A DNA stretch of 64,000 nt from NCBI GenBank assembly GCA_000091205.1, contig AP006502.2, one strand, 5' to 3'. Under the pieces are notes generated by a model. That model searched no databases. It was given only the letters and a program-made list of their open reading frames with translations, and had not been told where the DNA came from. Both the position numbers and the translations under genes were made by a program. Each line of letters opens with the position of its first letter. Within the stretch, counting starts at the first letter, position 1. Below are positions 1,199 through 51,444 of the stretch, piece by piece. The DNA is from Cyanidioschyzon merolae. Taxonomy: Eukaryota.

Positions 1199-2503
1199 TC
1201 ACTCGGCCGAGAGCTCCTGATAACCCGTCCAGCTTTCATTTGGTTTCAACTCTACACCCTTGTCATGAAATACTGCTGGTTCGATGCAAATGAATTTTTG
1301 CCAGTCAGGGTCGGATCCTTGTTGCCCGTAAGGATTCCATAAAGTGCAGTCTGTGAATCCGCGCTTGTCTATTTTCATCACTGTCAACGCTACCATATCG
1401 AAGAGCGCCATCTCATCGGGAGCGTTCTTGTAGACTCTATCGACAGCGGCCTCCACTGGAAGACCACTCAAAAGCACGGATTCCTCACGTTTCATGGTAT
1501 TTGCATCCATCTTGTCCAAATATTCCAGATTGTCGTATCCGAAGACTCGAATTTTGGACACGTCCCGGACGCGCAGATAATTGTGCAGCGCCGCTGTAAA
1601 GGGCATCGGCCGATCGGTTTCCAAGTTCGTGATGCGCAGCTCACAGCGCAGGCCCCGCAAATTTAGCGTCACAGCATACTCGGCAGAGAACTTGAAAGGA
1701 AACAAGTCGCGGTAGTGCGAGGGCACCTCTTCCGAAGAGAGCATCAGAACACAACGCGATGCAGTACCATTTTCTACCATATCGATACTCCGCAGCTTCC
1801 AGTCAACATTCCGTGCAAATCCGTGATTCGGGAGCGCTCCATCACTACCAAACTGGGGGAAACAAATTGGAATCCCTCCGCGAATTGGTTTCGATCGATC
1901 AAAAACGGCCTCTTCTGAGAGAAAAAGCATCTCCTCAGTGCCTTGGCGCGCTTTCCACGACGTGACGCAGGCTCCGAACAGGTACACATCGGCCACTTGT
2001 TTTGTCTGCTCGTTCTTTAGACGAACACAGGGTAAACCGTTCCGCCCGTCAACTAGGCAACCGGCCTCATCGCTTGGAACGCCAGACTCGGAGAGGCCGC
2101 TGGCCTTGCCTCCTGTGAGCTCTGCCGCCAGTTTGGCTGCCAAATCAGTGAACCGAGTGCCTGATGCGTCTCCTTGGCCAGGATTATTTAACTTCGCGCG
2201 GAGGCCAAGAGACAGCGGCACATAAGCGCCCTTCTTACGGTCCCATAGCCCAGGCGTCCACTGAGACCCCGATCGACCTGTTGCTCTGGCTTGCCGGAGA
2301 GACCCGCAGCAGCGCTGTCTACTAGTGCGCACCCCAAGCGGACAGCTAGAACTTAAACCACAGACCACAAACATGCTATAGTGATTGGTTGCAGGTACAA
2401 AGAAAAGGAGCTCTTTGGCCTGACCGGTCCGCAAGACGAGCACGGCTGTCCTAGAACTGCTTTCACGAAGTGCACGCTCCCGCATGATGAATGTGTGACG
2501 CAT
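1199..2503 (-). CDS. Glucose-6-phosphate 1-epimerase (aldose 1-epimerase-like, yeast YMR099C family). Conserved domain from about 2070 downward; N-terminal ~145 aa is a non-conserved S/R/G-rich extension, so the start codon is uncertain
   Basis: Motifs RGGIPICFPQFG, HGFARNVDWKL, LHNYLRVRDV and WNPYGQQ...ICIEPAV match the G6P 1-epimerase family signature. Single ORF of 434 aa. Confidence 0.7.
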   Translation of the reverse strand: MRHTFIMRERALRESSSRTAVLVLRTGQAKELLFFVPATNHYSMFVVCGLSSSCPLGVRTSRQRCCGSLRQARATGRSGSQWTPGLWDRKKGAYVPLSLGLRAKLNNPGQGDASGTRFTDLAAKLAAELTGGKASGLSESGVPSDEAGCLVDGRNGLPCVRLKNEQTKQVADVYLFGACVTSWKARQGTEEMLFLSEEAVFDRSKPIRGGIPICFPQFGSDGALPNHGFARNVDWKLRSIDMVENGTASRCVLMLSSEEVPSHYRDLFPFKFSAEYAVTLNLRGLRCELRITNLETDRPMPFTAALHNYLRVRDVSKIRVFGYDNLEYLDKMDANTMKREESVLLSGLPVEAAVDRVYKNAPDEMALFDMVALTVMKIDKRGFTDCTLWNPYGQQGSDPDWQKFICIEPAVFHDKGVELKPNESWTGYQELSAE

Positions 2504-2517
2504 TGCGCCGCCAACAG

Positions 2518-2706
2518 TGATACGGACGCCTCAACCCGACGCCCTCAGTGGCATGGCAAAACCGTTCTGTCTCCGTGCAGTACCTGCTTCAGCGGGATAA
2601 GCGCTACGGCGAGAGCTCAAAACAGCTACTCGGCACACGATAGAACATACGAAACGACCAGTATACCCGAGAGGAAGTATGGGTTATAGAACTTGAAGGT
2701 AGGCGC
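2518..2706 (+). repeat. Copy 1 of a ~190-bp dispersed repeat (second copy at 12443-12625), ~80 % identical, same orientation
   Basis: Manual alignment: the core gcacacgatagaac(a/g)(t/a)a(c/t)gaaacgaccagtat(ac/tt)ccgaga(g/a)gaagtatgggt(t/c)at(a/g)(g/t)aacttg(a/g)aag and flanking blocks are shared between the two loci. Confidence 0.6.
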
Positions 2707-3246
2707 TTCATCATTAACGCTTTCCCGAAATCCAGTATCCGTTCCGAATTCTGGAATCCAAGGTCAATCTAAACATTTTGTCATCTGAAAAACTTCAGTT
2801 ATGCGGAACGCTCCGCGTATTGGACGCCCTGCTCGCAAGCATCTCCAGTGGAGCTCTGGCCGCCTTGTCTGCCGCTAGCATCTTTTGTGCTACTGGGGGA
2901 TCACTGCTCCGACACAATGATAAGGTGGCATGGAAAATGGCCTAGTTCATTCAGTAACCCGCTTACGAGCGAGCAAGATTTGCGCTGATTGGCTAGTGCA
3001 CCCAGATGCACGCAACCGACGGCATGGAATTGGGTCAAGTCTGTTCAAGAATTCGTTCACGAACGAGTAACATTTTTGCTGTCGGGGTATCGTGCCTGAG
3101 TGCACGCATCCTGCACCATGAACGTGAGATCAGGTGAATGGAACAGCCCTGAACGTGTCGTATTCTTTAGTGTCATTTGCAGTGAAGGAAACGGCGCTGG
3201 AACAAAGCAAAAATGACGCCAAAGCGGGGCATCGCCGTCGGATCGG

Positions 3247-4794: not shown

Positions 4795-7069
4795 ACGGGG
4801 ACTTTGTATGGCTGCGTCCTGGTGGGCATCGGTAGAAAGCTGACGAGAGTTACCTATGATTCTTAACGTAGAAGGCGAACATGGTGACGGAATCCGCTAT
4901 GAAGGTAGCGGGCGTCTTGACTTTTGCAGCCGCAGTTGCGTGCATTCATTATTAGCGAATGAGGTTGGCATCCTATCGAGCGTGCAATATCGCTCTCATG
5001 CAGCATATTTGGTGAAACATTTCCAAACAAATGTTTTAGTTTGTTCGACAGTTCAGCTACCTGCAGCATCTCCCGGTCACAGGTATCACTCTTCTTCAGA
5101 TGGACCTGCGGGTTCAAGCTCTGAAATAATTCCTATATGCATTGGATGGATGCGCGCTTTGGAAAAAAATGCAACAAGCGATTGCCTGTCCCATGACGAT
5201 GCAGGAAAGACCACTCGTGGCTAATAGGGCACCGGTTCCGTCTCATACCAGGAACGAGCGAAGGCATAACGCTTCGGGAGAGGTTTCTCTGCGCTCGAGC
5301 CGCTTTTCCAAAGCGCACGCCTAACCGACAAATGAGGAAAACGTGCTTTTTTAGATCATTACGGCTTGCGATTTTCAGACGGGATTCTGTCAGGTCTCAA
5401 GCATGCAGTCTCCGAGCGTGCCAGCGTCTGCTGTATACAAGTTGCCCGATGAGAAGCCTATGAACCGAGGAAGACGAATCTCCCCGCCCTGCATTTTTTG
5501 ACCATCACCATCTCTCGTGATTGATCGTAAAGTCCGTCGAAAAAGCTTGAAAGCATGATGTCGCAGTCGACCGAAGCGTGCTGTTCCGTCAGACGGTATG
5601 GTCCCTGTCACGCAAACTGCTTCTCCACGTGAGCTCTGTTGCACTTCGTTTACCGTTGAATGCTCCACGACCGTCAACATTCATATTCGGCAGTGCGCAA
5701 GCTAAACAGCTCGCCAAACAGAGGGGCTATGAGTCCGCCACTCTTTCCTCGCCATGTTCTATAAGTGGGGAACAGCGAGCGGACGTGTGCCAGCGTGCGT
5801 GATATCTCGAGGGGTTCAACACTTAGAAGTGTATGCAGCAATAAGATTCCACGCGTTCGAAGTACAGCTGTACCGGGCGCTGAGGAAAATGTGCCCAGAC
5901 CCTAGCGCCTTCGTAAACGACCATCGCCAGAACTTTTTCAAAACATCGGATATCGGAACAAGTGGTTCGAGGGAAAGAGGTCGACAATGAAGTTTGCTTC
6001 ATGTAGACCGGATCATGGCTCCACCATAGTTCCGTCAGATGAAACACGAACACGGATCCTTTCAATATGTTCCTGCTTTTCGACTGTGCCCCTGTTTTTT
6101 GGTAGATGAAAGGCCTCAACATTCGAAGTCCAATCATCGCGGCTCACGGATTCATTCGTTGTTTTAGGATTCTCGATCTTCTTCTCGAATAGCTTCCTCT
6201 GTCTCCATGTTGTTGGGTTTGTAAAGTTACGAGTAGCAATATGACTCGCACCGCCATCGACCAAAGGGTTCGTGAAGCTACTGACGTCATTATCCGATGT
6301 ATGCGTACAATACTTTGTTCTTCCCTGTTCCTTACGTGTGGCATGCTCAAATCACGCATGCTTCAAGTTTTGGTCTTCCTGTTTCGAGGCAACTCGTGGG
6401 CGCAACAATTCGAGCAGAGAGATTGGTAATGAGCGAAATACGAAATCGGTTCTGAACGACTTGGTCACAATCCCACGCAAAAAGTTCACTGAACTCCCCA
6501 AGACAACCATTCGGTTCCATGCGAGAAGCAAACCCCCGGCTCTTTGCGGCAATAAACGGAACGGCATTGCGCAACACCATTGCCCATGCCCTGTGATAGA
6601 CTACCAGAAGCACCCGCCCATTCTGTTCAGACAAAAATGGGTTTCGTACTTGGAATGCAGTTATGGTTCACATGGCTTCCAGTGGAGCGTTTGTCAAAGA
6701 TTTCCACGACGGAAGTATAGGGCGCATCGCATTTCTCGACTTGATTTCCAGCCTTTCTTTTCCCCATGGTACTTGGATCATCATGGACGAGCTCGCTTCC
6801 CAGAAATCCTCCTTCGGGCCGCAAAGCTAACACTGGCGCGTCCAGCGGACAGCTTCCTCACCGAGAAGATCCCCCAGAGGAACACGGTGTGCGTAAGGCA
6901 TGGTACCGGGCGCGGAAACCGAGGAGGGCATGGCAACGTGCCTTCTGCACCCGATAGAAGCACGTACCGAGTTACGAAGCACGCGTTTGTCGTGAAACAG
7001 GACAGCTCTCGGAGAAGGGTGTGTGTTGGACATATAGGAACAAACGACTACAGCTAAACTTCACTTGTA

Positions 7070-7220
7070 AAAACCTCGCACCTCGGCTGTACACAAACGA
7101 GACGATGAAAACGACAAGGGATGCATGAATCGCTTCTTTAGCCTGTGGATGCATTGCGCAAGCAATAGCTGGAAACAGCGAAATCAATACTTGAACGCTG
7201 CGATCAATATCCTCCGATGA
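7070..7220 (+). pseudogene. Isolated relic of a TnpB/Fanzor-like C-terminus (zinc-finger remnant plus RuvC-III motif)
   Basis: Frame-0 peptide ...KGCMNRFFSLWMHCASNSWKQRNQYLNAAINILR* fits the TnpB pattern HC..(x)..DRDxNAAxNIL. It is short and surrounded by stops. Confidence 0.35.
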
Positions 7221-9363: not shown

Positions 9364-12300
9364 AGCCCGTGCGGCCCCAGACCGAATGTTGTTTTTGTAC
9401 TGAGTTTTGAAATGCCACGGTAGCTTTTTCCGATCTCAGTGACGAACATAGAATGATCGTGTAAGCTACAGCGCGTGAAGGGAGCACCAGATTCTGAAAT
9501 GCACCGCATGAATGCCGCGTCGGACACTAAGTACTTGACCTCGACATCAGTTGTCGAAGCTGTCGCTTTTCCGACCAACCGTTCTTTCCCAGAGGAGCAT
9601 TTCTCGTAATATGATGCGAGCCAGGTAAGAGAAATATATATAGCATATATGCGTGTGATTTCGATTCGAAAAGCATGCCGTAAAAACCAACTCTCCTTTA
9701 TGGGCATGATCACTGCATCAATGCACGAATTCCAAATCCGGATATCCTGGTGCCGGAGACATCCGTACCATCCAAAGCATTGGGATCTGAGCGTCTTTTC
9801 ATTCGTGGTCACAAAGATGGGTCCTCACTCGACTAGGTATGCGCCCAGAGCGCTTTTGTTTATGCGCTTCCAACGATTCCGGTGGTTCCATTCATGTACG
9901 GCAAGCCGGACGTCTTGAACGACTAGCCTAGACGACGAAGAACCCCGTCTGTCAACGCCGATCCGGAGACTGCTGGGTAGCTCCGCAAGCTTTTGCAGAA
10001 TTAGAACGCCGGAAAGCGCTGTTCGGTTGTTTCGGTCACCGAACCTGGATTGGCGGCTATCCAACCTATCAACTACAAATCACGTCCGAAGCTTTCTCTC
10101 TGCGACCTCGTCCAAAAGGTCCGCTAGGCGGGCTGCGACGGAAACCGTGACGGCCAACGAGTTGTGTTTCATGTGAGACCCAGTTCGTTCGATGTAGCTG
10201 GGTACCGTCAGCGTGCAGTCCTGTGCTTCACTAGAGAGCCTCGGTAAAAGCCCCGGCATCGAGACAATCTTGTGTTCTCTTCCGTTGCCGTGGCGCCGAC
10301 GTTTCGTCGAGACGTGCCCCTCGCCTGAACTCCCGTCTGTGAGCAAGTTGTGTAGTGAAGATTGCTGGAGGGAGGACGCCTAAGCGCCGCTACCGGCAGC
10401 GACTGGTGACGTGTGACCCAAAAGACGCGCAAACAGACATTCTCCGTAAACCTGCGAGAAAGGTGTACCACACTTCTTACATTGCTGCTAGTAAGCATGT
10501 AGCTGCTTACATCGTAGGGGTGCTCGCGTCCCTGTCTGCCCGTTGCGAATCAACGACAACTGGACGATGCCGCTGGTATCGTACGTTGACTATGTTGCTG
10601 AACGAGCGTCGTTCGAATTTCAGATCAGAGGGAGCTGCAATGTCGTTATGAAGCGCATTCCCCAAATCCAGTGTCTTCATGGTACCGGTACGTCTGCCGA
10701 TAGAGAGTGCAGCAGTGCTGAAAGAGCCTGATTGTATGTGCGTCCTTTCGGCGCTACGCGTTTGTCAAGGCGGACTCTGGTTCATCAGCAGAGAAGACTT
10801 GAAGATCCGAAGAGCGTCATCGTGCCCAGCATGCATTGTCTGCTCGCATTCCACATGGTCGCTGCTGAATATGTCCACCATCCCGATGCCGCTGAACGCA
10901 CTGAGCAAATCTTTTGGGTCGAGCATCATTCCCGCAGACCAGTCTGGACTGTGGGTAATGGAGCATAGGGTCAGAAACAGACCAGCGGTTGCTTGCCTGG
11001 ATGCCGGTATCCATCGCGCAACCCGGAACCGTGTCCCATGAAAATGGACCAAATATCCTCTCGCTCTGTTCCTGCCTTTCGAGTTTTCTGCTGAACATCT
11101 CTTGAGAAAGACATCCACGATATTCAAAGTGCAGCAATCGCGGCTTACGAATTTATATGCACTTTAAATATTCTCCGACGCCTTTTCTAAGTAACTGCTT
11201 CGACTCGTTGCTGCTGGAGTTCGTAATCTCACCGGAATCGCCACGATTCACATCGCCATCGGCCGAACGTTTCGTTCCATAACCCTTCTCATCGAAGAGT
11301 TCGTACGCACAAGTCTCCAATCCTCTCCTTTCCTCGCACACGGCATGCTTACGTTACACACTCTTCAGGTTTCCGATCAAGAATTTTCAAGGCAATTCAT
11401 GGGCAGAACAAATCGCGCTGCTGGGTTGGTGAATAAGGATACTCGATGTTGTAATTTGACGACTCGCTCACAAGCTCATGTCGAAAGCGCACAGAGCTTG
11501 TCGGGTCAAGTAATCTATTCCATTCGAAAAACGAATCTTCTCCTCTCCTTAAGCATCCATACAGCTGCATTCTACACCAGCGTGGTCTCCCGCACGAGAT
11601 ATGCTCCCTGAGGCTCTCGTTTCTTTGTGTTGGATGGAAAGCGGGGCCTTCAGCTCGGAATTGCGTCGTTGAACTTATCGCTTCCAGTAAGGTGTATAAC
11701 ACCTTTTCGCACGGAGGAACCGTAGACGAATCGACGTTTCTCGATCTGATCTGCAGCCTGGATTTTGCCTCCGGCACTCGTCTCATCATGGACAACACCG
11801 TGTCCCAGAAACCGTCTATCGAAAGGAAGACTGCTTGTCCGAGGGTGCAGCGGACAGCGCACTCGCCGAGCAAAACGCCCAGAACAATGCAGTGATCGTT
11901 GGGTACTTTATGGGCCGCGCGAACGGGGAAGGGCATTTAGGCTCGCCTTCCGTACTCCTTAGGCGCATGGAACGAGCGATGAGGCATGTGTTCACGTGAA
12001 ACAGGGCGGGCCTCGGAGCAGGTGGAGGTGTGGCGGACGCATGCGAATACCCGATGACAGCCAAATTCCACAGCTGCGATGTGCGCATCACGGCTGCACA
12101 CAAACGAGTTCGTAGATCACAATTTCCGCCCTTGCACCAAAAGCATCGACTGTAACCGCAAGTAACGAAAAAGGGAGTTTATCGCTACCATCAAAATCCT
12201 TCGTCAGGTGAATAGGGAGCTGAAGCGAAAGGGGAGACAGACGTATTTGAAACCTTCCATAAAAGCTAGAAAATAGAGTAGTCACAGAAAAAGCCTGCAG

Positions 12301-12442: not shown

Positions 12443-12625
12443 GATCCCATCGAGCCGATGCCCTCTGTGGAATGGCAAAGCTGTTCTGTTTTTGTGCTGC
12501 ACCCGCTCCAGCTGTTTAGGCGCTGTTGCGGATGCTCTCGGCAGGCGCTAGGCACACGATAGAACGAATGAAACGACCAGTATTTCCGAGAAGAAGTATG
12601 GGTCATGTAACTTGGAAGCAGCATA
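12443..12625 (+). repeat. Copy 2 of the ~190-bp dispersed repeat, 318 bp upstream of the eIF1 ATG
   Basis: See copy 1 (2518-2706). Confidence 0.6.
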
Positions 12626-12942: not shown

Positions 12943-13284
12943 ATGAGCGACCTTTCTGACCTTGGAGTTACGAAACCATTTGACCCATTCGCTGATGCTG
13001 ACACTGACTCCGGCGTCGTGACGAAAAACCTCGTGCACATTCGTCTGCAGATGCGCAGTGGTCGGAAGAGCCTGACGACCATCCAAGGCCTTTCAGGAAA
13101 AATTGATTTACACAAGCTGACAAAGGCTTTCAAGAAGGAGTTTTGCTGCAACGGTTCTATTGTAGAGGATAAAGAGCTTGGACGCGTGATCCAGCTCCAA
13201 GGCGACCAACGAGAAAACGTGCGCCGCTTCCTCATCGAGGAAGAGCTCGTTGACAAGGATAACATTAAAGTGCATGGAATGTGA
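12943..13284 (+). CDS. SUI1: Translation initiation factor eIF1 (SUI1)
   Basis: 113 aa. DPFADADTD...VHIRLQMRSGRKSLTTIQGL...LTKAFKKEFCCNGSIVEDKELGRVIQLQGDQRENVRRFL...IKVHG is the near-canonical SUI1 fold sequence. Confidence 0.9.
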   Translation: MSDLSDLGVTKPFDPFADADTDSGVVTKNLVHIRLQMRSGRKSLTTIQGLSGKIDLHKLTKAFKKEFCCNGSIVEDKELGRVIQLQGDQRENVRRFLIEEELVDKDNIKVHGM

Positions 13285-13749
13285 GGAAAATGTTTCACGA
13301 AGGTCTCCAAAACGACCATCAAGTGAAATACACGTGGCGGTGGGGTTACTCCACACAGCTTCCGTACCAGCGTGAGCAGCGGTGTCTGGGCTCTTGGCTG
13401 CTTGCATCAGTGCGCTCGCAGAATACTGATCTTCGGGGAGCGCGAAGCTCCAGGGCAGAACGCGACCTGTGCGCTTCACGGTGGAAGCGGTTTGCCTCTA
13501 TGGTTTGGAAGAAAATAGGTTCGATTGAACCCAATGGTCATGTCCTGCGGAGCGAGCAGGACCAATCGAGGACAGAGAATGTTGCGACGCAGGTAGTGCT
13601 GGATGCGTGGCAAAACATTCAGAGGCAACGGTGGCAATATACCGCCTGCGCTACTGATATGCGTGTAAAAGGTAAGATGAATGGACTGGACAAAAGAAAT
13701 CGCAGCCTCGCCCAGACCTTAGGATAATTGCCGTATTCAATGCTGTGAC

Positions 13750-15205
13750 ACCCCCGATGCGTGCCATCGAATGCTTTTTTGTCAGTGTAGAGCAGGAGAT
13801 GGAAATCAAGATGCAATACACCGTAGAGATCGTAGGCGATTTCCCTGCAGGATAGATATTCTTAACTGAACAGTGCAAGGAGGACTGCATTAATCCGTCA
13901 GGTCAGTCATACCGAAATACACAGATAATCGACGAACGCTGACAGAAACAAATATATGCGCTCCACGCTAATAACAGATATTCTCAAAGCGTGCTTGCGG
14001 TCCTTGGTAGTAAACGGACCATTGATCACCTCACGAAGAGCAATAGCGACGATAGCGGACACATCGGCGTCTCTGTTTCTCAGCAGTTGGATCGTCCGGT
14101 CCCGCAAACAATGGGGTACAGTCGCAAAATTCCTAGTTCAAGCACCGCTATCTTTCACTGAAATCGCAATGGCAGAATTCCTAGAAGCTTGCGATCGGTA
14201 TGAAGCACAGATAAGTCGGTTTGTTTTTTTTTCAGTCGATGAGACTTCCCTCTGACAAAACGGTCTCAGCGCATATGGGTACTCGCGGAGCAGGAAGCCC
14301 CCTGTATGCACGATGGAAATCGAGAAGAACGAGGACATCTTCCTCTGTTCTAACTGCAGGGAATTCATCTGGCGGCCTCCGTTTCGCTCGTAGAGAGGGC
14401 TCATCCAACAGCATCGTTTTCGTAGCATCATTCAAGACTTTTCCCCTTACGTCTAATGACTTCCATCTATCGGACAACGGAAAATTTCACCGTTCTCTGT
14501 GCGTTGGAACTTTTGCCGACGCTAACGGGGTAGAGCTGCTTTTCATTCCTGTGTAGGCCCCGTGGTTCAACTCCATCGAAGGAGCGTTTTCTATCGTGAA
14601 ACTTAACGATCGCGTCGCTGGACAAGTCCCTACGGCTTCCAGCACACTGGGGCACTTATTGACTTTCTAGCTCTGCGAATTTCCATACCTAAAGGCATAA
14701 AGAGCAGCTTTCATGCGAAGAATTACAAAATCCAAGGGAAGGGTATGGAGATGGAAATCGAGGATCCTGGAGGCCCGCCATCCTCGGCTGCCGGAAAAGA
14801 ACGAATAGAATCCTCTTCTCGCGAAAAGCCGAACGAAGAAGAGCCAGTGACGAAGAAGAAGATGGGAAATGGGTAAGGACAGTGGTTCGCCCGATGGTAC
14901 GATGACGAGACTGTTGTGACACAGGGAGCACGAGTACTAGTAATCCTTGCAATAATGTGTTCAACCAGCGGCGGGAAACGCATGGAGTTCTTGAACCGAG
15001 ACTTCAACGCCGCCATTCATATCAGAAGATGTGCGGTGCTCAAGACAAGATCCGCGGAGCTGACACGACCCAACTTCCTGGGGCAGTCTCTCAGGCTCGA
15101 AGTGCACGGTGAAAAACTGCAACCGATAGCAGGGGAACGGTCAGAAACGGCTGGGAGGCGCCTGTGAGTTGGTATATATATGCAGCCTATGGCAGCGAAA
15201 CGTTC
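13750..15205 (+). mobile_element. Long copy (A) of a TnpB/Fanzor-like DNA element, ORF degenerate (frameshifts and stops). Fills the spacer between the eIF1 and CCT2 3' ends
   Basis: C-terminal peptide CSTSGGKRMEFLNRDFNAAIHIRRCAVL gives the RuvC-III DRDxNAAxNI hallmark. About 1.4 kb is collinear at nucleotide level with copy C (49415-50800, minus). The 3' module ctctcaggctcgaag...ggctgggaggcgcctg...tatatatg is shared with copies B, C and D. Confidence 0.55.
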
Positions 15206-15287
15206 TCGCGCCATGAACCGCAGGCAGGATCTGGTGACTTGCATTTCGAGTTTCTTCTGCGCATGACTGGGACGTGCAAGGACCATT

Positions 15288-16901
15288 TTACATATGAGGG
15301 TGTGCAGGTTCCATTTTCCTAGGCGCTGATTTGATAACATCATCCACGCGGAGGATCATTTCAGCTGCTTCTGTTGCGGATGAAAGCACGTGTGCTTTCA
15401 GTCGGAAAGACTCCACGACACCTAAAGCTCGGGCATCGGCGATAGAACCCGAGAGGATATCCAAACCAGCCGAAGTGTTGCCCTGAGCGTGCGCAGCTCG
15501 AAGCTCCGCCACGAGACTCGTCGCATCGAGACCCGCGTTTTCCGCGATAAGGCCTGGAAGACTGCGGAGAGCGCGAGCAAATGCCTCCGCCGCCAGCGCG
15601 GCTTTGCCGCCCATACGTGCCGCACACGCATCCACTGCATTCGCCATGAGTGCCTCCGAGCAACCGGCTCCCAAAACTAGTCGGGAGTCTACGACGAGTT
15701 GGCTCAGTACACAGAGGGCATCGTGCAACGAACGCTCAGCTTCATCGAGAATCTGCTGGTTCGCACCCCGGATGACGATCGAGCAAGCTTCTGGCGCCCG
15801 ACATCCCTGAAAATGCAGTACAGCGTCGTCCCCGATCATGATCTCTTCGATAACGGCACATTCACCGAGCCGAATGGCCCCCGGACTATCGAAGGTACTG
15901 ACGATTTCACCGCCGGTCACAAGCGCTAGGCGCTCAATGCCATCGAAATCTGCGTGTTCAATACTGTTGATACCATTATCCGTGAAAAATTGCTCCGGAC
16001 GATTGTAAATGAGTTGACGATTGACAAAAACATTGCATCCGTAACCGAGAATACGACGACATTTCTCTATCATCTTTTCCTGCTCCGCTTGTTCTATTTC
16101 CGCAACACGTGCAATTGACTCTGTCCGAACACGAGCACCATAGATTTTGATCTTATCCGTATCCATCGGTGTGTTGGCAATCAAAATTTTTGCATTTTCG
16201 ACACGTTTCTTCTGGCCTACGCCGAAGCGCTTCTCCAGAATGAAGCCTTCCGCCAGGAATGACTCATGAAGGGCACCGCCGGGTTTTTTAATGATTTTAA
16301 TATGATCCAGGTTCGTGCTACCTTGCAAGCGGATCACAGCATCTACCGCGATCTTCGCAAAGAGCTCCCTGCACTGCGACAGAACTTTCGAGGACAGCGC
16401 CGTGCGCGCAACGTTCATAAGCGCCTCGTAGCCAGCCGGAGTGTCTTTCGCGGGTAGGGCCATGGCGGCTTCTTCGAGTGCTTTCAGCGCCTCTCGATGG
16501 GCAGCACGGTATCCGGCTATGATCAACTGAGGGTGCAAGCGCCTTTCGAGGAGCTGTTCCGCTTCACGCAACAGCTCACCCGCTAAACAGCAAACCGAGG
16601 TGGTGCCGTCCCCGATCTCATCGTCCTGCACCAGAGCAATATCAACGAGGATCTTCACCGCTGGGTTATCAACGTACACAGACTTTAGGATTGTTGCACC
16701 GTCATTCGTAACACTGACCTCCCCAGAAGGAGAGAGGAGAATCTTATCCATCCCACGGGGCCCTAGCGTCGTTTTCAGCAAGTCCGTAATAGCCAGAGCA
16801 CCAGTGAGCAACGATAGGCGCGCGTTCTCTCCCTTCTCTTCGGTAGAACTCGACTTGAGGACTTTCTGGAGTCCAGTCGGTGGTAGCCTCAACTGCGTCA
16901 T
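15288..16901 (-). CDS. CCT2: T-complex protein 1 subunit beta (CCT2)
   Basis: 537 aa. [31 protein letters not shown]...[11 protein letters not shown]...[11 protein letters not shown] is collinear with CCT beta through to the C-terminus. Confidence 0.92.
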
Positions 16902-20508: not shown

Positions 20509-22025
20509 TGGACTCAGAAACGTCCAATGGTGGAACTCCGTTGTCATCTACCGATTGCCGACGAAAACCCTTCCCAGTGTATAAATACGGTGCTCCCTCG
20601 TTTCTGGATTGCTGAAACCGACCTCACCAATGACTTCATCCAGGAAATCATCCAATATCCTGGCTCATGGCCACAGATGTTTCTCGACGAACGTCGATAG
20701 CGTTGCAGCACAACGCCAGTACCGCGTACGAAACGATTTGCCTGAAAGTTCGGTCGGCAGAAAGTCGCAGGACGCTCCGCAAGCACCAGATATTACCGAA
20801 TGCCGATCGAGTCGCTCAAGTCCTAGTACACCGTGTGCTTGTGTACATTGCGGGGTGTGGCGTATCACAGCAAAGCAGGCGCTCAGCTTGGATTGCCTCG
20901 CCATCTGGTGTTCGGTCTGCTTGCCATACGCCATGCTGCGCATCCGGCACGGAGTTGCGCTGCTCTTGTTCTCTACCAGTTTCAGCAAGCACCCGTGCTC
21001 GTGATGTGTGGATGTCGTCCTGAGCGCATCGATGGGAGTGTTCCAGGGTCCATTCTCGCACACGTTGGACGCCCTCGTTGAAGGGGCAGGAATGCAGGTG
21101 CTGTTCGCTACCGGACGTGTATCGCGCTGGACTCGCGCCAAACGACCCGACTTGTCAGCCGTTTCCATTGCCGCCCTGTAAACGAGGAACCTCCGGTGAG
21201 ACGCGTAAATGCACTTCGTAAAGTCGCTCGAGTGCTTCGCGCTTGCTCACAAACACCAGCTGCAGCTCGCCAAGGAGCCCGCGCACCACACTACACATGT
21301 GTCTCCGTGCATCTCGTGGATCTACGTGTAACGTACGCGCACGATACCCAGTAGACGCGGGACGAGCAAGAACGGTCGGCTTCGGCGGCGGACGCTGCGT
21401 CGCTCTGGAGGGATCAGCTCAGGGTCGCTCTCGCAGGTGTCTTGCCTGCGAGCGGCGGAGTCCCTCTTTAGTGAGTACCCGTGTATCGGCGTATCAGTTC
21501 TCTCCCGAGTGAGGTCTTGTCGAGTGCGAGAAACATCCGTTCGTGGTGTAGCACAGGCTGGCCATTCCGGCACGGAATCCTCAGCATATGGATCAATGCG
21601 GGACGGTCTCGAGTAGAGGCATGCGTTTCTCGTTGTCCAACCGCGTCTCTTCATCAGCGTTTGCATCAGCCATGCGAAAGCTGTGCTTTCTTTGGTCTCT
21701 TCTATGGTATTTCTCGGAAACGTGTGTTATGAAATGAATCGACGAGGAGGTAGTCGTTCAGCTAGAAATTCAAAAATTCTGTTTTCGGTGCTCGACATTC
21801 AACATAAGGCGTAGGCGGTGTGATGCCCATGGACCGTCTGCGTGCAGGACACTTGACTTGCAGAGGTAAACCCATTTTCGGAAGCGAAAGCGGCAGAATC
21901 AAGTCTTTCCGCGAACATTCTCTAGTCGGCAGCACATATTTCTTTTATTGCATACTTGCGAGAAAAACTAGCGAATAGGCGGGTTGGTACAAGTGCTCCA
22001 GAATTCACTGCTCCATGTGTAACCA
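20509..22025. repeat. Copy 1 of a 1,517-bp direct repeat (R), non-coding. Begins 38 bp after the stop of the 19041-20471 gene
   Basis: ORF-track ORFs at 20544-21732 recur identically, offset +4645, at 25189-26377. Boundaries were set by eye at tg(g/t)actcag...tgtgtaacca. About 6 mismatches in total. Confidence 0.85.
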
Positions 22026-23364
22026 ATTCTTTTCTGATGACAAAACGTTTACATCGACCATGGATCCGAGGATTCGGAAAGTATAATGGCTTTCGGGAAA
22101 GCGTCCATCATGAAGCATCTAGCTTCAAGTTCTATCACCCATACATGCTCTCTGATATACTGGTCGTTTCGTATGTTCTATAGTGCGCCGACTAGCTGTT
22201 TTGAGCACCCGCCGTAGCGCTTATATACCGCTGAAGCAGGTGCTGCACGGAGACAGAACGGCTTTGGCATACCGCTGAGGGCGTCGGCTCGAGGCGTGGT
22301 TCATCGGACACGGAGTCGGAGTACTTAATCATTCTAGGAGCCTGGAAGCTGCGCGGAGAGACGCACTGCCTGCGGCGGCACGGTGCGATATACTGGGCGT
22401 CCACTGCGACCAGGGCGACGCCCAGACGCAGCATACACGCTCCTAGTCCCAGATTGAATTGCATTGCGGACGAGTAGCTCAGGTTTCTTTAAAGAACCCG
22501 CCACTGAAGGAAGCATGAAGCACTAGCTAGCCCCGAAGACTCGTCCGGCTCGCGGGACCTTCCGCCTAGAAGGTAAACTTTCCAAGATACTGAAACTTTT
22601 CCCCATTTCAACGCTTACAATTAAGATCAAACGAAACTGTTATCGAGTTGCTAGTCAGTGCATAGTTTCTGTTTTTTTTTCGCATCGACGTCGATGCTCG
22701 GTGGATCAGGGCCTAGTTCCATTCAGCGGCAGCGACGGCGTGCCAGAATCCTGATGGAAGTGCTTTAAGAGGCTGCTTGTTTGAAGGTTAGCCTATTTGC
22801 GCTCGGGTCGCTGCTCTTTCTATATTGTCCGGGAAGAGTTCTTCGACAAGCATTGACCTTAGACGGCGAGAAGCAGCGCTTAGAGTCACAGCAAAGCTGC
22901 TTTCTGCGAAAACTGCGCGCAGGACAAGCGGTGACGCTTCCTTCGAGAGCGGCGCTCTTGGTTTTGGTGCGACAGGAACGGCTCGCAGTTCGGTAGACTT
23001 GGGTTTGGGTGGAGCTCGGAGATTTAAGGTGGTGCGCGAGATTGATAAGCGTAAACGAGTGGCGCGTTCCGCAACGTGCGATTCTTCGTGGCACCGAGGA
23101 GAACGCACGCATCCTCTAGCTTGAGCGTCACGCATTTTGTTTTGCTTACGTTGAGGCCTTCATAGATTGGTGGCGTCTTTGACAAGATCCGGGAATTTTT
23201 CGTTGCCCAGGGGCGAGATTTTTGAGACCAGGGGGTATCCCAGCCAAGTTACCGGAACTGCACCGCACTCGTGGCCGGTGTTCAACGAACGGCGATTTTG
23301 AGAGTCTTCTGAGCACGTATCCAGCGGATATAGTAGCGTTCACGAGACACGTACGTGCTTACCC

Positions 23365-25153: not shown

Positions 25154-26670
25154 TGTACTCAGTAACGTCCAATGGTGGAACTCCGTTGTCATCTACCGAT
25201 TGCCGACGAAAACCCTTCCCAGTGTATAAATACGGTGCTCCCTCGTTTCTGGATTGCTGAAACCGACCTCACCAATGACTTCATCCAGGAAATCATCCAA
25301 TATCCTGGCTCATGGCCACAGATGTTTCTCGACGAACGTCGATAGCGTTGCAGCACAACGCCAGTACCGCGTACGAAACGATTTGCCTGAAAGTTCGGTC
25401 GGCAGAAAGTCGCAGGACGCTCCGCAAGCACCAGATATTACCGAATGCCGATCGAGTCGCTCAAGTCTTAGTACACCGTGTGCTTGTGTACATTGCGGGG
25501 TGTGGCGTATCACAGCAAAGCAGGCGCTCAGCTTGGATTGCCTCGCCATCTGGTGTTCGGTCTGCTTGCCATACGCCATGCTGCGCATCCGGCACGGAGT
25601 TGCGCTGCTCTTGTTCTCTACCAGTTTCAGCAAGCACCCGTGCTCGTGATGTGTGGATGTCGTCCTGAGCGCATCGATGGGAGTGTTCCAGGGTCCATTC
25701 TCGCACACGTTGGACGCCCTCGTTGAAGGGGCAGGAATGCAGGTGCTGTTCGCTACCGGACGTGTATCGCGCTGGACTCGCGCCAAACGACCCGACTTGT
25801 CAGCCGTTTCCATTGCCGCCCTGTAAACGAGGAACCTCCGGTGAGACGCGTAAATGCACTTCGTAAAGTCGCTCGAGTGCTTCGCGCTTGCTCACAAACA
25901 CCAGCTGCAGCTCGCCAAGGAGCCCGCGCACCACACTACACATGTGTCTCCGTGCATCTCGTGGATCTACGTGTAACATACGCGCACGATACCCAGTAGA
26001 CGCGGGACGAGCAAGAACGGTCGGCTTCGGCGGCGGGCGCTGCGTCGCTCTGGAGGGATCAGCTCAGGGTCGCTCTCGCAGGTGTCTTGCCTGCGAGCGG
26101 CGGAGTCCCTCTTTAGTGAGTACCCGTGTATCGGCGTATCAGTTCTCTCCCGAGTGAGGTCTTGTCGAGTGCGAGAAACATCCGTTCGTGGTGTAGCACA
26201 GGCTGGCCATTCCGGCACGGAATCCTCAGCATATGGATCAATGCGGGACGGTCTCGAGTAGAGGCATGCGTTTCTCGTTGTCCAACCGCGTCTCTTCATC
26301 AGCGTTTGCATCAGCCATGCGAAAGCTGTGCTTTCTTTGGTCTCTTCTATGGTATTTCTCGGAAACGTGTGTTATGAAATGAATCGACGAGGAGGTAGTC
26401 GTTCAGCTAGAAATTCAAAAATTCTGTTTTCGGTGCTCGACATTCAACATAAGGCGTAGGCGGTGTGATGCCCATGGACCGTCTGCGTGCAGGACACTTG
26501 ACTTGCAGAGGTAAACCCATTTTCGAAAGCGAAAGCGGCAGAATCAAGTCTTTCCGCGAACATTCTCTAGTCGGCAGCACATATTTCTTTTATTGCATAC
26601 TTGCGAGAAAAACTAGCGAATAGGCGGGTTGGTACAAGTGCTCCAGAATTCACTGCTCCATGTGTAACCA
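25154..26670. repeat. Copy 2 of the 1,517-bp direct repeat (R). Begins 74 bp after the LKB1 stop codon
   Basis: See copy 1. Identity about 99.6 %. Confidence 0.85.
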
Positions 26671-32100: not shown

Positions 32101-33535
32101 ACTTTTCTGCGACTGCCTCCTTTTCCTCTCTTATCTATACATTTAAATAGGCTGCGCTCTCCGTTCCAGGCAGCTTCGTTGCCTGCAGTCGAAGGATATC
32201 AGTGGCAGGGATGAAGTCTCGATCAAGTTTTAACGGACTGTTGCGAATGCATTTCAACCACGGACGGATGTTGCGATCCATGCCTCTCTTGTCATTTCCA
32301 TCTTACTTGCGGACAACTTCGGTGCGCCCTTCGCTGATCCGACACTGGGCTGAGGTCAAGTGTGCCCACATGTCTATCGCAACGCCCCCTCCGAGGTGGC
32401 ACTGTGGTGCAAAAGCCCTTGCCTCATGGCACGGTGCATGCCCTTGATGGCTACAGAACGCACTCCTCGATGCCCGTCTACGTCTCCGTCTGTTGTGCCG
32501 TGCCCGATGACCACGGGCTTGTTCTGAGCGATCCCATATGCGAGTAGGCTGTCCGCTGCGTGGGCAAATACACTCTGTTCCATTCGATTGAGGACTTAGG
32601 AAAAGCGGTTTTGTTCATGGCGGAACAATTTCAGGAAGCAGTATCAAGACTGTAAAACGAGTCGAAAAAATTTCCTTCCGCGGACGATCCCTGCGTGCAA
32701 AGCGGTAACACACGCACCACGGGAAGGGATCTATGTAAAAACTCAGGCCCTAGTCAAAGAAATGTAACATGCTAATAGAAGAGAAGAAAGGATCGACGAG
32801 TGTATCCCGAATGAGATATCGTGCTGGTAGCGATCGCTATTTCGTTGATATCCAAACAAGAAAGCCAGACAAGTCTTTCGAAAGGAATCGATTATTTGAA
32901 CGGAGAATTTCGGTGAAGTTCCGGCACCGACTTGTGAACAATTCGCCAAGAGACGACGTCAATTTTTTTCCCCATAAATCCGTTTCCAAGAATAGGCACG
33001 CTCGTGAGTTACCCAGAAACAGAAAGATCGACAATTTGACGCATGCGTTCTTGGAGTATGCAACACTTCAGGAAAGGATACGAGTCGTGGCTTGTACGTA
33101 CGAATTGCATAGAGATACCGTTCGGTTTCCGAGCTCTTGCTCGAGAGTGTCGCGAATCATCTCGATTTCGATATCGTTATGAACTCTAGCGGTAAAGAGT
33201 CGAGGGGGGCAACGCTGAGAAGACCTCCACCGAGCACATCCTCGATGGACGTATGCGTCCATGCACCCTTTATTGCTGTACATATACGGAAAAATATGAA
33301 AAAATCACACAGCAGCAAGATCGAACACTTCAGCGCTCCACATTCATCGGAGACGCTCCGATGGCGCCACGTGTCTGATACGCAACACGCGGCGCCCTAG
33401 GCTCCGCACGAGTCGGGCGCCCACAACCGTTCGTCCAGCGTTCGATTTGAGCGCTTTGTCGCCGCTGCATTCTGCTATTAGGACGCTACTTGTTCGACTT
33501 TTCGTTTTTGAGACTGCAACGAGCCGGGTTGTTCC

Positions 33536-38712: not shown

Positions 38713-38746
<34 letters not shown>

Positions 38747-38948: not shown

Positions 38949-39019
38949 TAGACTGCTTCGCTCACTTGTGGTTGTCTAGAGCGTATGTATGCTCAGTGAA
39001 ACTAAAAAAGTCCCACGAC

Positions 39020-39515
39020 CGTGTAGTGTATATATGCATCCCATTGCAGATGCCTCCCGGACTTTTTCGACCGGCCGCCCACTACTGGTTGTAACGTCAT
39101 CCCGTACAATTCGACCCTGAGCGGTTCTCCCACAAAGTCGGCTCGTATCAGCTCCGGGGGTCTCTTGTCCAGCACTGCACATCTCCCGATGTTGATAGCA
39201 GCGTTAAAGTCTCGGTTCGCGAACGCTATGCGTACCCTGCCTCTGGTTGAACTCACCATTGCAAGGATTCCTCGAACTTGTGTCCTCTGTTCTACTACAG
39301 TCTCGACCTCGTCCCGTCAGGCGAGCACCTTTTCTCGTCTACCTGTCCTCTTTTTCTTCGCCGCCGCGCGCTTTCCCTTGCTCGATGAAGGGCGAGAAGA
39401 GGATTTTTTCCTTGTTTTCGGACAGCCGGCAATGAGGCCCTCTAGGATCCGCGACTTCCATCTCTATACCTTAGCCTTTTTACATTTGTAAATGAACGCA
39501 CTTCGAGAGCATTTG
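39020..39515 (-). mobile_element. Short, internally deleted copy (B) of the TnpB/Fanzor-like element: 5' terminus joined to the 3' ~470 bp
   Basis: Peptide RIAFANRDFNAAINIGRCAVL, the 3' module and the ...gcatatatac terminus. The 5' junction aaatgct(c/t)t(c/t)cg matches the 5' end of copies A and C. Confidence 0.5.
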
Positions 39516-40678
39516 CTCTAAACCACGAAAAAAGCATTAAATGATACGCACTTGGCGCCAGAGCACAGTTGAGGTGAAGTGCTATGACAAGAATCCTGCA
39601 CGTGCCAGGTCCGCAGCACGTCTAACATGCTCGTTGCTTTGCTCAGGGCAGAAGGTTGAGGCGCGAGCCTGATTAGCGTTGACGCGATCTGTGTTCCCAT
39701 GAGCGAAGCTACATTCTGGTGCATCAGGCGCAGTTGAGCGGATATCGGTGAGCTCACAAGTCGCCACAGGGTATGGTGCTGTGTGCTAGCCAGTCACCGC
39801 CCGCCACGTAGAACCCCGATAGCAGGACACGCAGGATACGATTCGGAACGACGAGCAACCGGGGATCGGTGCTGACCTTCTTCAGCGCGTCCAGAGCGGA
39901 GGCGAACCCTGTGCTCTATGTTTTTTCGTTCTCGATAATAGTTCCAAGACGCTCAATAGCTTGCGCACCCGCTTCGTGTCCAGGATCCGTGAGCGTGCTT
40001 CCACCAAGCGCCAGGTGCGGCTGTCGTTCTGGAACGCTACCAGCTGTTGCGAAGCAATCGTCAGCGTCAAGGGTGCAGGCATTTCTCGAATACGGCAGCG
40101 TGGAGTAGCTCTGAAACGCACGTTCGTACTTCAGGGTGCAAATCGCGACCTGGTAGCCGTCGATGTCCGCGATGGTGCGCAGAGAAGATACCAAACGCAC
40201 CTATCCATCCATCTTCCCAACTATGCATGTGTGCATGTGTGCGTAAAAGCAAGCAGGCGGCTATCCATGCGTCTATGTGCACAGGCAACCAGCAAGCAAG
40301 CAATCAAGCAAGTTGCTTTCTCAGGTAGAAGACGATATTGTGACCTGTGCGCCACGGTCTTGTGGCCATTCAGCAGCTACTGGTATAGGCAACGCAGCAG
40401 GTGCAGGAAATGACTGCGGACTCCAGCGAGCGCTGTATCGATATTGGGACACATGTTGTGAGAGCTGAACTGCAGTTTATTGGTGTGCGTGTCCTTCCCT
40501 GCGGGGTTTCCGTCCGTCTGGTATGGGTCTCCCCATGAGCGCGTACGCAATCAGGAAACATCGCTTCGTAACGCTCGCCGGTTCCTTTCGATGACGTTTC
40601 TGCGCTCCATGCGGAGCCTCTACATAGCCGTATCTCGTTCATGATGCTAATGCATGACTTTCCATGATCATGCATACC

Positions 40679-49302: not shown

Positions 49303-49414
49303 CCCTCGATCCGCCCCGGGCGAGCGTGCTGCATGTCTTTTACGTACAGAACTGTTCTACCTAGAGCGCATCCCCGGATGATTATCCAGATACCTGTCAA
49401 ATAAACAAAAAATG

Positions 49415-50800
49415 TCCTGGGACCATATAGGATAAATTAATACTCATATGTAGACACCTCTCCGCCCTTTTCGACTCGCAGACTGTTACGCATTCAGTTT
49501 TGTCCAGACAACCTTCGAGCCTGAGAGGATACCCCGCGAAGTTGGATCGCGTCAGCTCCGCGGGTCCCGTCCTCAGCACCAATGATCGCCTGATGTTTAT
49601 GGCAGCATTAAAGTACCGGTTCATGAACTTCGTGTGGGCTCTGGCGCTGGTTGCGCTCATCAATGCAAGAATTGCGGGAACTCTCGTACTCTCTGTACCA
49701 TTTGATACTCGGTCAGCTCTCTGTGCGTTTCGATCGCAAAAGCGCTTCGCGGGCACTTCTCCAGGTCGACCTTCTGAAGTGGAGACCCCAGCTCACCCTT
49801 TTGTTTATTTTAAAACGAGCGAACTTGTTTGTTCGTTTTGGTGAGGACGTTCCCGGAAGCGGGAAAGACTTGCGGATGCAAGACCGGATGTATTCTGGTA
49901 TCACTGTGCGCTGAACGCTTAAGCGATTCTACCAATGGAGCGCTCAATAGGCTTAATTAAAGAAAAGCGTCCTTCGATGCGGTTGAACCACGGAACATAC
50001 GGAGGAATGCAAAGCAGTTCTACTCCGATAGAATCGGCAACAGCTCCAACGCAAGGGGAATAGAGAAATGCAACGTTGTCCAATAGAAAAGCGTCGCCAG
50101 ACGTCAGGGGAAAGTCTTCAATGGCTCGACGTAATGGGCGCTGTTGTATGAGTCTTCTCTACGAGCGAAACTGAGGCCGTAAAATGAATTCACCCCAGCT
50201 AGAACAGAAGATGGTGTCGTCATTCTCCGCGAGTTCAACCGTACATTCAGCAGGCGCCCAGATCTGCGAGTACCCATATACGCTCCGACCGTTTCATCCA
50301 AGGCAAGTCTCATCGAATGAAAGAACAGACCGACTTCACTCTGCCTCAGATCGATAGCGACGTTCCTGGAAACTGTCGTTGCGATTTCGATGGAGGACGG
50401 TCGTTCATGGCATTGGACATTTTCGCGACTGTATCCCAGTGTTTTTAGGACCATACGAACTAGCTATTGAGAAACAGATACGCCGTTGGCGGCTACCACT
50501 GTCGCTTTTGCTTTCCGTAAGGTGATCAACTGGTCGTTTGCTGCCATTTAACGCAGTCAGTCTTTAAGAATATCGGACATTGTCGCAGAGCGCATATTCA
50601 GGGTTCTTTCAGTGTTCCTTAGGTATCTGAGTTCTTTTACGTGGATGACCTGATGGAGGAATGCAGTCCTCCTTACACACGTCAGTAAAGAATATATATA
50701 TCCTGCAGGAAATTTTTCTACGATCTATAGAGTACATTGCATATTGACACTGATCTCCTGGTCGTCACCGCGAAAAAACATTCAATGACAAGCAGCAGTG
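49415..50800 (-). mobile_element. Long copy (C) of the TnpB/Fanzor-like element, degenerate. Its 3' terminus lies ~110 bp upstream of the ARM-repeat gene ATG
   Basis: Peptide FMNRYFNAAINIRRSLVL on the minus strand. About 1.4 kb is collinear with copy A, including upstream blocks (FFHSMRLALDETVGAYMGTR matches A's FFQSMRLPSDKTVSAHMGTR). Confidence 0.55.
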
Positions 50801-50885
50801 CTGGAACACAGTGAGTTGAGGACGATCAACGGAATGCTTGCTCGTATAATCTTTCATCTCAAGTGTTTTGCCCCTCTGCTGCGCG

Positions 50886-51430
50886 TCATCAAATGCTTTT
50901 TCGTGCTTTCTAGCAGACGCGTATGAACTGCGTTTGTTCTCAAAAACAAAACATATAAGGAAAAAATTATGGACATAGAATTCGGGGATCCTGGAGGATC
51001 GCCATCCCCGAGTTCCAGAGAGAAACTGAAAAATTTCCCTCTCGCCAACCATCGAGCGAAGAAGAGCTAGTGATCGAGAAGAAAAAGAAAATGAAATGCG
51101 GAGATAGGCGAAAAATCGTGTTTAGCTCACGGGACGGTGACGGGATTGTAGTGGCGCGGAGGGCACAAGTTCGCAGAAGCCTTGTAATGTTGAGTTCGAC
51201 TAAAGCGAATAATCGTGTAGAGTTCATGAACCGAGGACTTAACGCTTCCATCAATATCAGACGATGTGTAGCGCTGAAGGAATTAGCCTACGTACTTCGT
51301 GGGGGAGCCTCTCAGGCTCGAAGTGAACAAGAGAAACTGAAATCGATAGCGGGGAGTTCGTCAAAAAAGGCCGGAAGCGCCTGCTAGTTGATGTGTATAT
51401 GCACTCTGTGGTCGCGAAACCGATTTCGTA
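50886..51430 (+). mobile_element. Short, internally deleted copy (D), head-to-head with copy C (~90 bp between their 5' ends)
   Basis: ORF MIEKKKKMKCGDRRKIVFSS...NRGLNASINIRRCVAL plus the 3' module ctctcaggctcgaagtgaacaag...gcgcctgctagttgatgtgtatatgcac. The 5' junction is aaatgctttttcgtgctttctagc. Confidence 0.5.
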
Positions 51431-51444
51431 TCATCGTCCATACA

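Follow-up and report, generated by a model that had tools for sequence, protein, structure and literature searches.

Apparent relics of the Fanzor1 transposon family CMe-1A in Cyanidioschyzon merolae, with a candidate omegaRNA region at the right end of their intact relatives

The window analysed here, a stretch of 64,000 nucleotides from the red alga Cyanidioschyzon merolae, contains four homologous copies of a repeat, named A to D, at the positions where an original prediction had located them from the sequence (Table 1). Self-blastn and a four-way alignment confirmed their relationship. The copies are linked at 65-73% identity with E-values of 1e-22 to 1e-48. A, B and D match the 15-mer CTCTCAGGCTCGAAG perfectly and C differs from it at 3 positions, so that chance similarity is ruled out by the E-values and the 15-mer matches. 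From 5' to 3', copy A comprises a terminal motif, a DDE_3 transposase pseudogene, a Fanzor1 leader with an N-terminal remnant, a C-terminal remnant and the right end. Copy C starts with the same 5' terminal motif, followed by the N-terminal remnant, the C-terminal remnant and the terminal hairpin, and copy D lies head to head with copy B. On either side of copy A lie ORF 12943-13284 (+), identical to eIF1 of C. merolae 10D (BAM83285.1), and ORF 15288-16901 (-), identical to CCT-beta of the same strain (BAM83286.1). A scan of the whole 64-kb window with Rfam 15 gave 0 matches at the gathering score, and a tRNA/tmRNA scan of the same sequence found none.

Table 1. Position of the copies and of their parts in the window
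Feature	Position	Strand	Basis and content
Copy A, long composite form	13756..15215	+	Colinearity; six-copy alignment for the 5' boundary
DDE_3 (IS630/Tc1/mariner-type) transposase pseudogene, copy A	13797..14640 (degenerate frames 13758-14592)	+	Pfam
Degenerate remnant of the first ~57 Fanzor1 codons, copy A	14745..14925, ATG at 14745	+	blastn to CMe-1A consensus 895-966, 82%; tblastn to CMe-1 aa 1-36
Last ~83 Fanzor1 codons, copy A	14916..15167, stop TGA at 15165-15167	+	ORF list (83 aa); RDFNAAIHI = RuvC-III motif; tblastn to CMe-1 aa 647-729, 58% identity, E 1e-22; blastn to consensus 2849-3083
Flagged interval, copy A	15080..15205	+	28 C-terminal codons, stop, TA-rich box and first 18 nt of the terminal hairpin
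TA-rich box, copy A	15171..15185	+	Nine subfamily copies aligned with two full-length copies
Terminal hairpin, copy A	15188..15215	+	Fold; UAUGGC-A-GCGA / UCGC-GCCAUG, 10 bp, one bulge
Flagged 3' module, copy A	15080-15215	+	
Flagged 3' module, copy B	49540-49405	-	
Flagged 3' module, copy C	39120-38985	-	
Flagged 3' module, copy D	51300-51435	+	
Copy B, long form	49396..50798	-	DDE_3 pseudogene 50794-49961 and Fanzor1 C-terminal remnant; consensus 2738-3020 (blastn) at 49795-49514
Copy C, short form without the DDE part	38992..39553	-	Terminal hairpin 39021-38992; blastn to consensus 840-969 and 2840-3085
Copy D, short form	50879..51435	+	Terminal hairpin 51408-51435; blastn to consensus 785-969 and 2839-2963

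CMe-1A was described from C. merolae as a Fanzor1 element with a consensus of 3169 bp, encoding the 734-aa protein CMe-1, and present in ~150 genomic copies that are each ~80% identical to the consensus, some of them still with intact protein-coding capacity (Bao & Jurka 2013, PMC3627910). The same authors reported that the element has no terminal inverted repeats (TIRs), that its target site duplications (TSDs) were undetermined, and that its 5' 635 bp correspond to a second repeat, TE-N2_CMe. The original proposal of a TnpB/Fanzor-type family was well founded, given that all four copies map on this element from the same genome. In blastn they match the CMe-1A consensus at 70-82% identity (E 1e-8 to 3e-55), overall within ranges 785-969 and 2738-3085, and in tblastn with CMe-1 only aa 1-36 and ~612-734 are represented, at 39-60% identity. 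The C-terminus of CMe-1 aligns with a Fanzor1 of Volvox, DEF and RD motifs included (E 9e-10). No Pfam family was matched by the full CMe-1 protein or by the single-copy 3' ORF translations, and a PDB sequence search with CMe-1 gave no match. A profile of the four translated 3' ends retrieved 126 unnamed short proteins from hot-spring-type metagenomes, the longer of which carry ...VDEFRTSYTHHELGC...NRDFNAAINIRRC...GRSKKTGRRLH. The complete Fanzor1 set, RuvC D...E...RD with a zinc-finger region, was not found in the copies, in which RuvC-I (DPG) and RuvC-II (DEF) are deleted and RD only is left. The string VEMEIEDPGG, considered as a zinc-finger region, was rejected because it is the N-terminus of CMe-1. 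On the basis of these alignments, we assign A-D to the CMe-1A family as decayed members, and the copies in the window can be regarded as relics of that family rather than as coding members.

The original prediction had seen, upstream of the 3' module, an ORF riddled with frameshifts. In A and B this long degenerate frame belongs to a DDE_3 transposase pseudogene and not to a TnpB/Fanzor gene. The Fanzor ORF of A, C and D has an internal deletion, with consensus ~1075-2835 absent. What looks like a linker joining the two remaining blocks continues the N-terminus in diverged form (QYDEMVVKA vs WYDDETVVTQ), YDEMVV of copy A aligning, as read by eye, with YDDETVV of CMe-1. Their common structure identifies A, C and D, as judged from alignment, as one internal-deletion derivative in which ~57 N-terminal codons are joined to ~92 C-terminal codons and the right end. 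Compared with CMe-1A, the window copies lack consensus ~1-785 as well as ~1075-2835 and have PLRLE for PLKVE, and the long form holds the DDE_3 pseudogene, which is unmentioned in Bao & Jurka 2013.

The consensus translation of A, B and two loci from other samples (L028 and L061) scores 49.8 bits against Pfam DDE_3, over a cut-off of 28.6 (E 4.2e-13), single copies scoring 12-23 bits, and in blastn the DDE_3 region of A and B has no counterpart in the CMe-1A consensus. In copy A the segment is located between TAGAGCAG and AAGAGCAG. The long unit, consisting of the 5' motif, the DDE_3 gene, the Fanzor leader, a mini-ORF and the 3' end, is colinear at 66-69% in four loci from other samples (L028:5453-6710, L061:5266-3910 in reverse complement, L089:891-2346 and L099:1015-2472). 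The 5' terminal motif TGCGTnnATCnAATGCTTTTT is common to all four window copies, and C and D combine it with the 3' end found in A, B, L089 and L099, with no DDE segment in between; L101 has the motif and that 3' end and likewise lacks the segment. By this comparison, C and D are short, MITE-like non-autonomous forms that share both termini with the long form. Since copies with and without the DDE segment have common ends, the element family of the original prediction is a chimeric transposon that exists in a long form and in a short, MITE-like one. Element copies are ~60-70% identical to each other and all are old; the deletion derivative and its DDE_3-carrying chimera have, to judge from these loci, spread in Cyanidioschyzon-like genomes. 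Chimeric Mariner-Fanzor1 elements, PUl-1 and PGv-1, have been described in which a Tc1/mariner-type DDE gene and a Fanzor1 gene are likewise found in one element (PMC3627910). PUl-1 and PGv-1 have TIRs, TA duplications and a full Fanzor1, whereas the element in the window has a Fanzor remnant of 150 codons, and neither TIRs nor a TA duplication was found for it.

Noncoding conservation at the 3' end of Fanzor loci is a clue that was used by Jiang et al., and the original prediction rested on a similar argument: the 3' module was said to be shared near base-for-base and to be better conserved than the protein-coding part, as would be expected of an omegaRNA-like guide scaffold. This argument fails both in the window and with more copies. 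Overall identity between the copies is just 65-73%, and the gradient of conservation is the reverse of that proposed. Among A, C and D, mean pairwise identity in three 40-nt blocks of the flagged interval is 0.67, 0.68 and 0.58, compared with 0.64-0.76 in the coding remnant with the RuvC-III motif just 5' of it and 0.71 in the 5' module. Moreover, 15080-15167 is itself coding, being the 28 final codons of the 83-aa ORF, and the conserved blocks quoted in the original prediction are codons of the nuclease C-terminal tail. In nine copies of the subfamily, nucleotide diversity (pi) climbs from 5' to 3', from 0.22 (14993-15040) through 0.28, 0.32 (15080-15120) and 0.33 to 0.46 in the non-coding part (15165-15205) and 0.61 beyond. 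Copy A and its ortholog in a metagenome strain differ by 0.65%, with 0 differences in the flagged 126 nt, which are too few to inform.

The same trend was found in a wider sample. One scan yielded 80 metagenomic loci with CMe-1-like C-termini, which mapping and the removal of shared flanks reduced to 45 independent insertions. Calculated per 60 nt, diversity amounts to 0.2-0.27 for the N-terminal ORF part and to 0.13-0.19 in consensus 2160-3060, where codon position 3 has 0.2-0.34 and positions 1 and 2 have 0.05-0.17; this third-position excess indicates protein constraint. Diversity then rises to 0.25 in consensus 3061-3120, where the codon effect is weak, and to 0.32 in consensus 3121-3169. 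Equal conservation along the element, once more copies were aligned, had been named in advance as one half of a refuting outcome, and with more copies the 3' end is the least conserved part. A conservation equal to or above that of the adjoining coding sequence, which the original prediction expected of an omegaRNA, was found neither in the window copies nor in the subfamily nor in the 45 insertions. As a separate observation, consensus 2945-3075 includes blocks with unusually quiet third positions, which protein constraint alone does not explain, and no consensus structure was predicted for these blocks.

The codon pattern raises the question of whether the conserved 3' blocks are a selected mini-protein of ~150 aa, composed of an N-terminal basic region, the RuvC-III motif and the tail. 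In the reconstructed ancestor the deletion preserves the reading frame, some relatives (P0002, P0003) keep ORFs of 121-143 aa over the junction, and the nine subfamily copies show a third-codon-position excess of variation in the coding part. However, all four window copies have stops or frameshifts 5' of the last 83-96 codons, RuvC-I and RuvC-II are missing, no Pfam family was matched, and the codon signature is accounted for by constraint in full-length ancestors. We consider a mini-protein very improbable.

Intact relatives have three hairpins in the last ~95 nt of the element, a stretch that starts at the stop codon, and a fold z-score of -2.6 was obtained for it from two full-length relatives with complete right ends (L036 and L086). 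The first of them, H0, is a small hairpin across the stop codon (AGAC-N5-GUCU), and H1 follows the stop codon (GGCGRG-UUU-CUCGCC). The long terminal hairpin, H3, extends to the element boundary, which lies 10-18 nt past the published consensus end and ~70-75 nt from the stop in full-length relatives. Anchored views of the right ends also display a nearly invariant box, CCACTACTGTACAC, after the stop codon. H3 occurs as two sequence types in different registers, CGUUUUUC-UUUU-GAAAGGCG and CGUUCGA-CUU-UCGAACG, and a compensated variant, CGUUCUA/UAGAACG, was seen. H0 and H1 are 90% paired, against 29-63% when slid, a level that 0/500 shuffles reached, and one of their pairs switches between GC and CG (18:12). 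Pairing in H3 of type 2 amounts to 75.7%, compared with 38-47% for the slid arrangement, and three of its G-U positions are conserved; covariation beyond shuffles was not found in this type. Co-evolution of the outer hairpin arms was rejected, given that arms pair equally well with their own partners and with those of other loci (p 0.33). With no covariation beyond shuffles and with arms that pair equally, RNA structure is unproven even in intact elements.

Folding of the 50 nt after the box gave a minimum free energy of -16.1 kcal/mol in sense and -10.4 in antisense orientation (p 8e-8), with a mean z of -1.4 and z < -2 in 15/45 loci. RNAalifold recovered H1 alone from the mixed right-end alignment, because the two H3 types are in different registers; in the coding 3' region (consensus 2930-3125) it gave -2.5 kcal/mol or less stable, weaker than in control coding windows. 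The three hairpins have the place and the size of Fanzor1 guide-RNA scaffolds, which suggests that the family probably has an omegaRNA, and in intact elements the ~95 nt of the right end would probably be this RNA. The original prediction had put a guide scaffold in the 3'-terminal part of the nuclease gene and the element's right end, a position that agrees with bioRxiv 10.1101/2023.08.09.552727 and with PMC10432273. Copy A has a region in that position, from the stop at 15165-15167 to the end of homology at ~15215. A literature search for Fanzor RNA in Cyanidiophyceae found nothing.

Guide RNAs of known systems provide a frame for this candidate. The Fanzor1 reRNAs of SfAV and other insect viruses have three stems, and their guide-flanking stem-loop contains the transposon end (Yoon et al. 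2023, bioRxiv 10.1101/2023.08.09.552727). Intact CMe-1A relatives likewise have three hairpins, the last of which ends at the element boundary. The SfAV-type reRNA has a ~120-nt scaffold, a TIR and a TTAN target duplication, and its expression has been demonstrated, whereas the CMe-1A right end is known by its sequence. In prokaryotes, the reRNA (omegaRNA) of ISDra2 TnpB, of the IS200/IS605 family, includes the 3'-terminal part of the nuclease gene and extends through the right end, and the candidate guide region described here has the same placement. ISDra2 differs in having a TnpA Y1 partner, a TTGAT target motif and a much longer overlap with the ORF.

The window copies themselves have kept little of this structure. 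The four flagged modules gave fold z-scores of -0.74, +1.11, -1.70 and -0.35, no better than shuffled sequence, and a shared fold was looked for among them and not found. In the subfamily, a TA box stands in for the stop-codon region and for the two proximal hairpins (H0 and H1) of full-length elements, and the terminal hairpin is shorter than theirs; the window copies differ from CMe-1A in both respects. Two of the three hairpins are lost in this subfamily, and the flagged modules have no excess stability. The TATATA-rich terminus of the original prediction is this TA box, and it is not the end of the element, since homology and the hairpin reach ~15215. A lack of conserved structure had been named as the other half of the refuting outcome; it holds for the flagged interval and does not hold for the terminal hairpin, which copies A, C and D keep and which was not retained in B, as judged by folding of its right end. 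In the subfamily, 79% of cells of the terminal hairpin pair, compared with 43-48% when slid, which is non-significant against shuffles, and the hairpin includes G-U pairs and a few two-sided changes. Among the five metagenomic subfamily copies aligned in a shared register, four retain 6 or all of the 7 pairs and L099 has 5 of them. This retention suggests that the end could still be under selection.

Retention of the hairpin also bears on the proposal that the short copies are working "ghost" guide-RNA genes that lost the nuclease and provide omegaRNAs in trans, with guides derived from their flanks, to intact Fanzor1 proteins encoded at other places in the genome. According to Saito et al. 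(2023, PMC10432273), ORF-less "ghost" loci of Spizellomyces punctatus with an omegaRNA-like region outnumber full Fanzor loci, 134 vs 42, and many of these Spu-1 derivatives keep both ends, as do the short forms in the window. Moreover, the terminal hairpin is present in A, C, D and most subfamily copies, some genomic CMe-1A copies encode an intact protein (PMC3627910), and near-intact ORFs are present among metagenomic relatives. The evidence on the other side appears stronger to us. The 3' end has the highest diversity of the element (0.46-0.61), H0 and H1 are deleted in the subfamily, the modules have neither a common fold nor excess stability, copy B has lost the hairpin, and the copies are 60-70% identical, as for old neutral relics. 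Spu-1 is also reported to have inverted repeats of 30 nt and a CA motif and to be confirmed by RNA-seq, whereas neither inverted repeats nor a defined target motif was found in the window family, whose short form keeps a mini-ORF. We therefore regard working guide genes among the short copies as improbable.

The right-end hairpin might instead be a DNA-level signal for transposition, as in IS200/IS605, IS91 and Helitron elements, rather than an RNA scaffold, in which case the 3' module would be shared simply because ends must persist for movement. A search for terminal inverted repeats in the region of copy A (13285-15300) found none at the ends, as for CMe-1A in Bao & Jurka, and no TA target duplication was found for the composite element. 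Its left and right ends resemble each other in direct, not inverted, orientation and share T-run motifs. TE-N2_CMe, which has no Fanzor, ends in a comparable 9-bp hairpin with a GT-rich tail (consensus ~558-640), and both H3 types keep a long stem in spite of their different registers. These observations favour a DNA signal. The three conserved G-U positions and the asymmetry between sense and antisense folding, on the contrary, fit RNA better, and a HUH transposase was not seen in the family, in which DDE_3 is the sole transposase. As regards the asymmetry, a DNA hairpin of the top strand is also strand-specific. DDE_3 transposases normally need inverted repeats. A purely DNA-level role for the hairpin seems to us possible and rather unlikely; in known Fanzor1 systems one sequence serves as both transposon end and guide-flanking stem-loop, so that DNA and RNA roles need not exclude each other. 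Among 12 left-end flanks inspected for a target motif or duplication, a T/C-rich extension and a loose GCTGT/TGAT tendency were noticed. A 1517-bp duplication was considered as an empty-site control for TE-N2 and rejected, given that the sequence fails to resume past the element.

Taken together, our results favour, with a probability of roughly three in four, the interpretation that the flagged interval belongs to the 3' part of CMe-1A Fanzor1 copies that are decayed and non-autonomous. The copies would resemble each other at the 3' part because they descend from one deletion derivative in which both transposon ends, presumably needed in cis for mobilisation, were kept, and because protein constraint acted on the C-terminal tail in ancestors that were active. 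In intact members, it is most likely that the last ~95 nt, which start just before the stop codon and reach the right end, are transcribed as an omegaRNA scaffold, which would load Fanzor1 and, with a flank of ~15-20 nt as guide, direct cleavage of the empty site, by analogy with SpuFz1 and the Fanzor1 of SfAV. The window copies have lost the nuclease gene together with two of the three hairpins, and they would be relics and not working guide genes. A more far-reaching combination is also conceivable, in which the G-U-rich H3 and the two stop-proximal hairpins form an undescribed red-algal Fanzor1 omegaRNA scaffold, ORF-less copies carry guides in trans, and the DDE_3 long form is the missing autonomous partner of a Fanzor1 family without TIRs; we hold this to be a long shot.

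Both the CMe-1A family, reported in 2013 from this genome, and the principle of a guide encoded at the 3' end are already published. What is added here to a known kind of element is small, namely the deletion derivative, the extended ends and the DDE_3 chimera, and the finding is an ordinary one because the family has been described, the copies are worn out and deleted, and their 3' part is not specially conserved. Our analysis nevertheless locates where the guide RNA of the C. merolae Fanzor1 family probably lies, a region ~95 nt long with a right end 10-18 nt beyond the published consensus, and it points to a genetically tractable alga as a system for studying such RNAs.

The published consensus of the C. 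merolae Fanzor1 transposon CMe-1A seems to be too short at both its left and right ends. Inspection of the element ends in metagenomic relatives (loci L009-L088) showed that, in 11 loci, a T/C-rich stretch of about 10-12 nt (GATTTTTCTC) lies 5' of consensus position 1, and that the last consensus base is followed on its 3' side by about 10-18 nt resembling GTTGNTGGTG. In the terminal hairpin, the structure that reaches the element boundary at the right end, these bases make up the 3' arm. The left and right ends have the direct motifs TTTTTCT and AACGTTT in common. Some copies stop within or shortly before the terminal hairpin (L080/L084, L019, L028, L042 and L073); in one example, the homology extends up to ...CGTTCGACT, which is the loop of the hairpin. 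These early-ending copies either have been truncated on the 3' side or terminate at an alternative end point.

The right end of CMe-1A has a layout identical to that of the 3' end of TE-N2_CMe (TE-N2), a second C. merolae repeat that corresponds to the 5' 635 bp of CMe-1A and in which a 9-bp hairpin (TTTCCCCCT...AGGGGGAAA) is followed by a GT-rich tail (consensus ~558-640). Four copies or fragments of TE-N2 in the window show 66-83% identity to the consensus.

TE-N2 copies and divergent Fanzor1-like relics in the window
Feature	Position	Strand	Basis
TE-N2_CMe copy/fragment	2529-2785	-	similarity to consensus
TE-N2_CMe copy/fragment	12450-12616	-	similarity to consensus
TE-N2_CMe copy/fragment	22036-22681	+	similarity to consensus
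TE-N2_CMe copy/fragment	31273-31823	+	similarity to consensus
Divergent Fanzor1-like relic, first duplicate	21156-20731	-	match to CMe-1
Divergent Fanzor1-like relic, second duplicate	25801-25376	-	match to CMe-1

Within the Fanzor1 ORF (consensus 2117-2196), a unit of 75-80 bp is present in tandem 1-6 times, depending on the metagenomic copy (L009, L017, L020, L040-L045, L051 and others), and is a variable repeat of in-frame length inside the nuclease gene. Other repeats occur in the window: a 60-bp unit in perfect tandem duplication (43525-43644; two copies, 100% identity), a (TGC)10 microsatellite (38713-38743) about 250 bp past the right end of copy C (itself a decayed short form of CMe-1A), and two dispersed pairs of low identity (64-68%), namely 32422-33164 with 56945-57691, and 6723-7101 with 11727-12108.

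The relics in the table, which match amino acids 560-697 of the CMe-1A protein CMe-1 (31% identity, E about 1e-11), are a second Fanzor1-like kind in the window, far more diverged. They reside in two copies of a 1517-bp segment (20509-22025 and 25154-26670) that are 99.6% identical and have different flanking sequences; 1-2 nt separate the end of the first segment copy from a TE-N2 copy, counted with the latter's left end extended. This pair possibly reflects a recent duplication or mobilisation.
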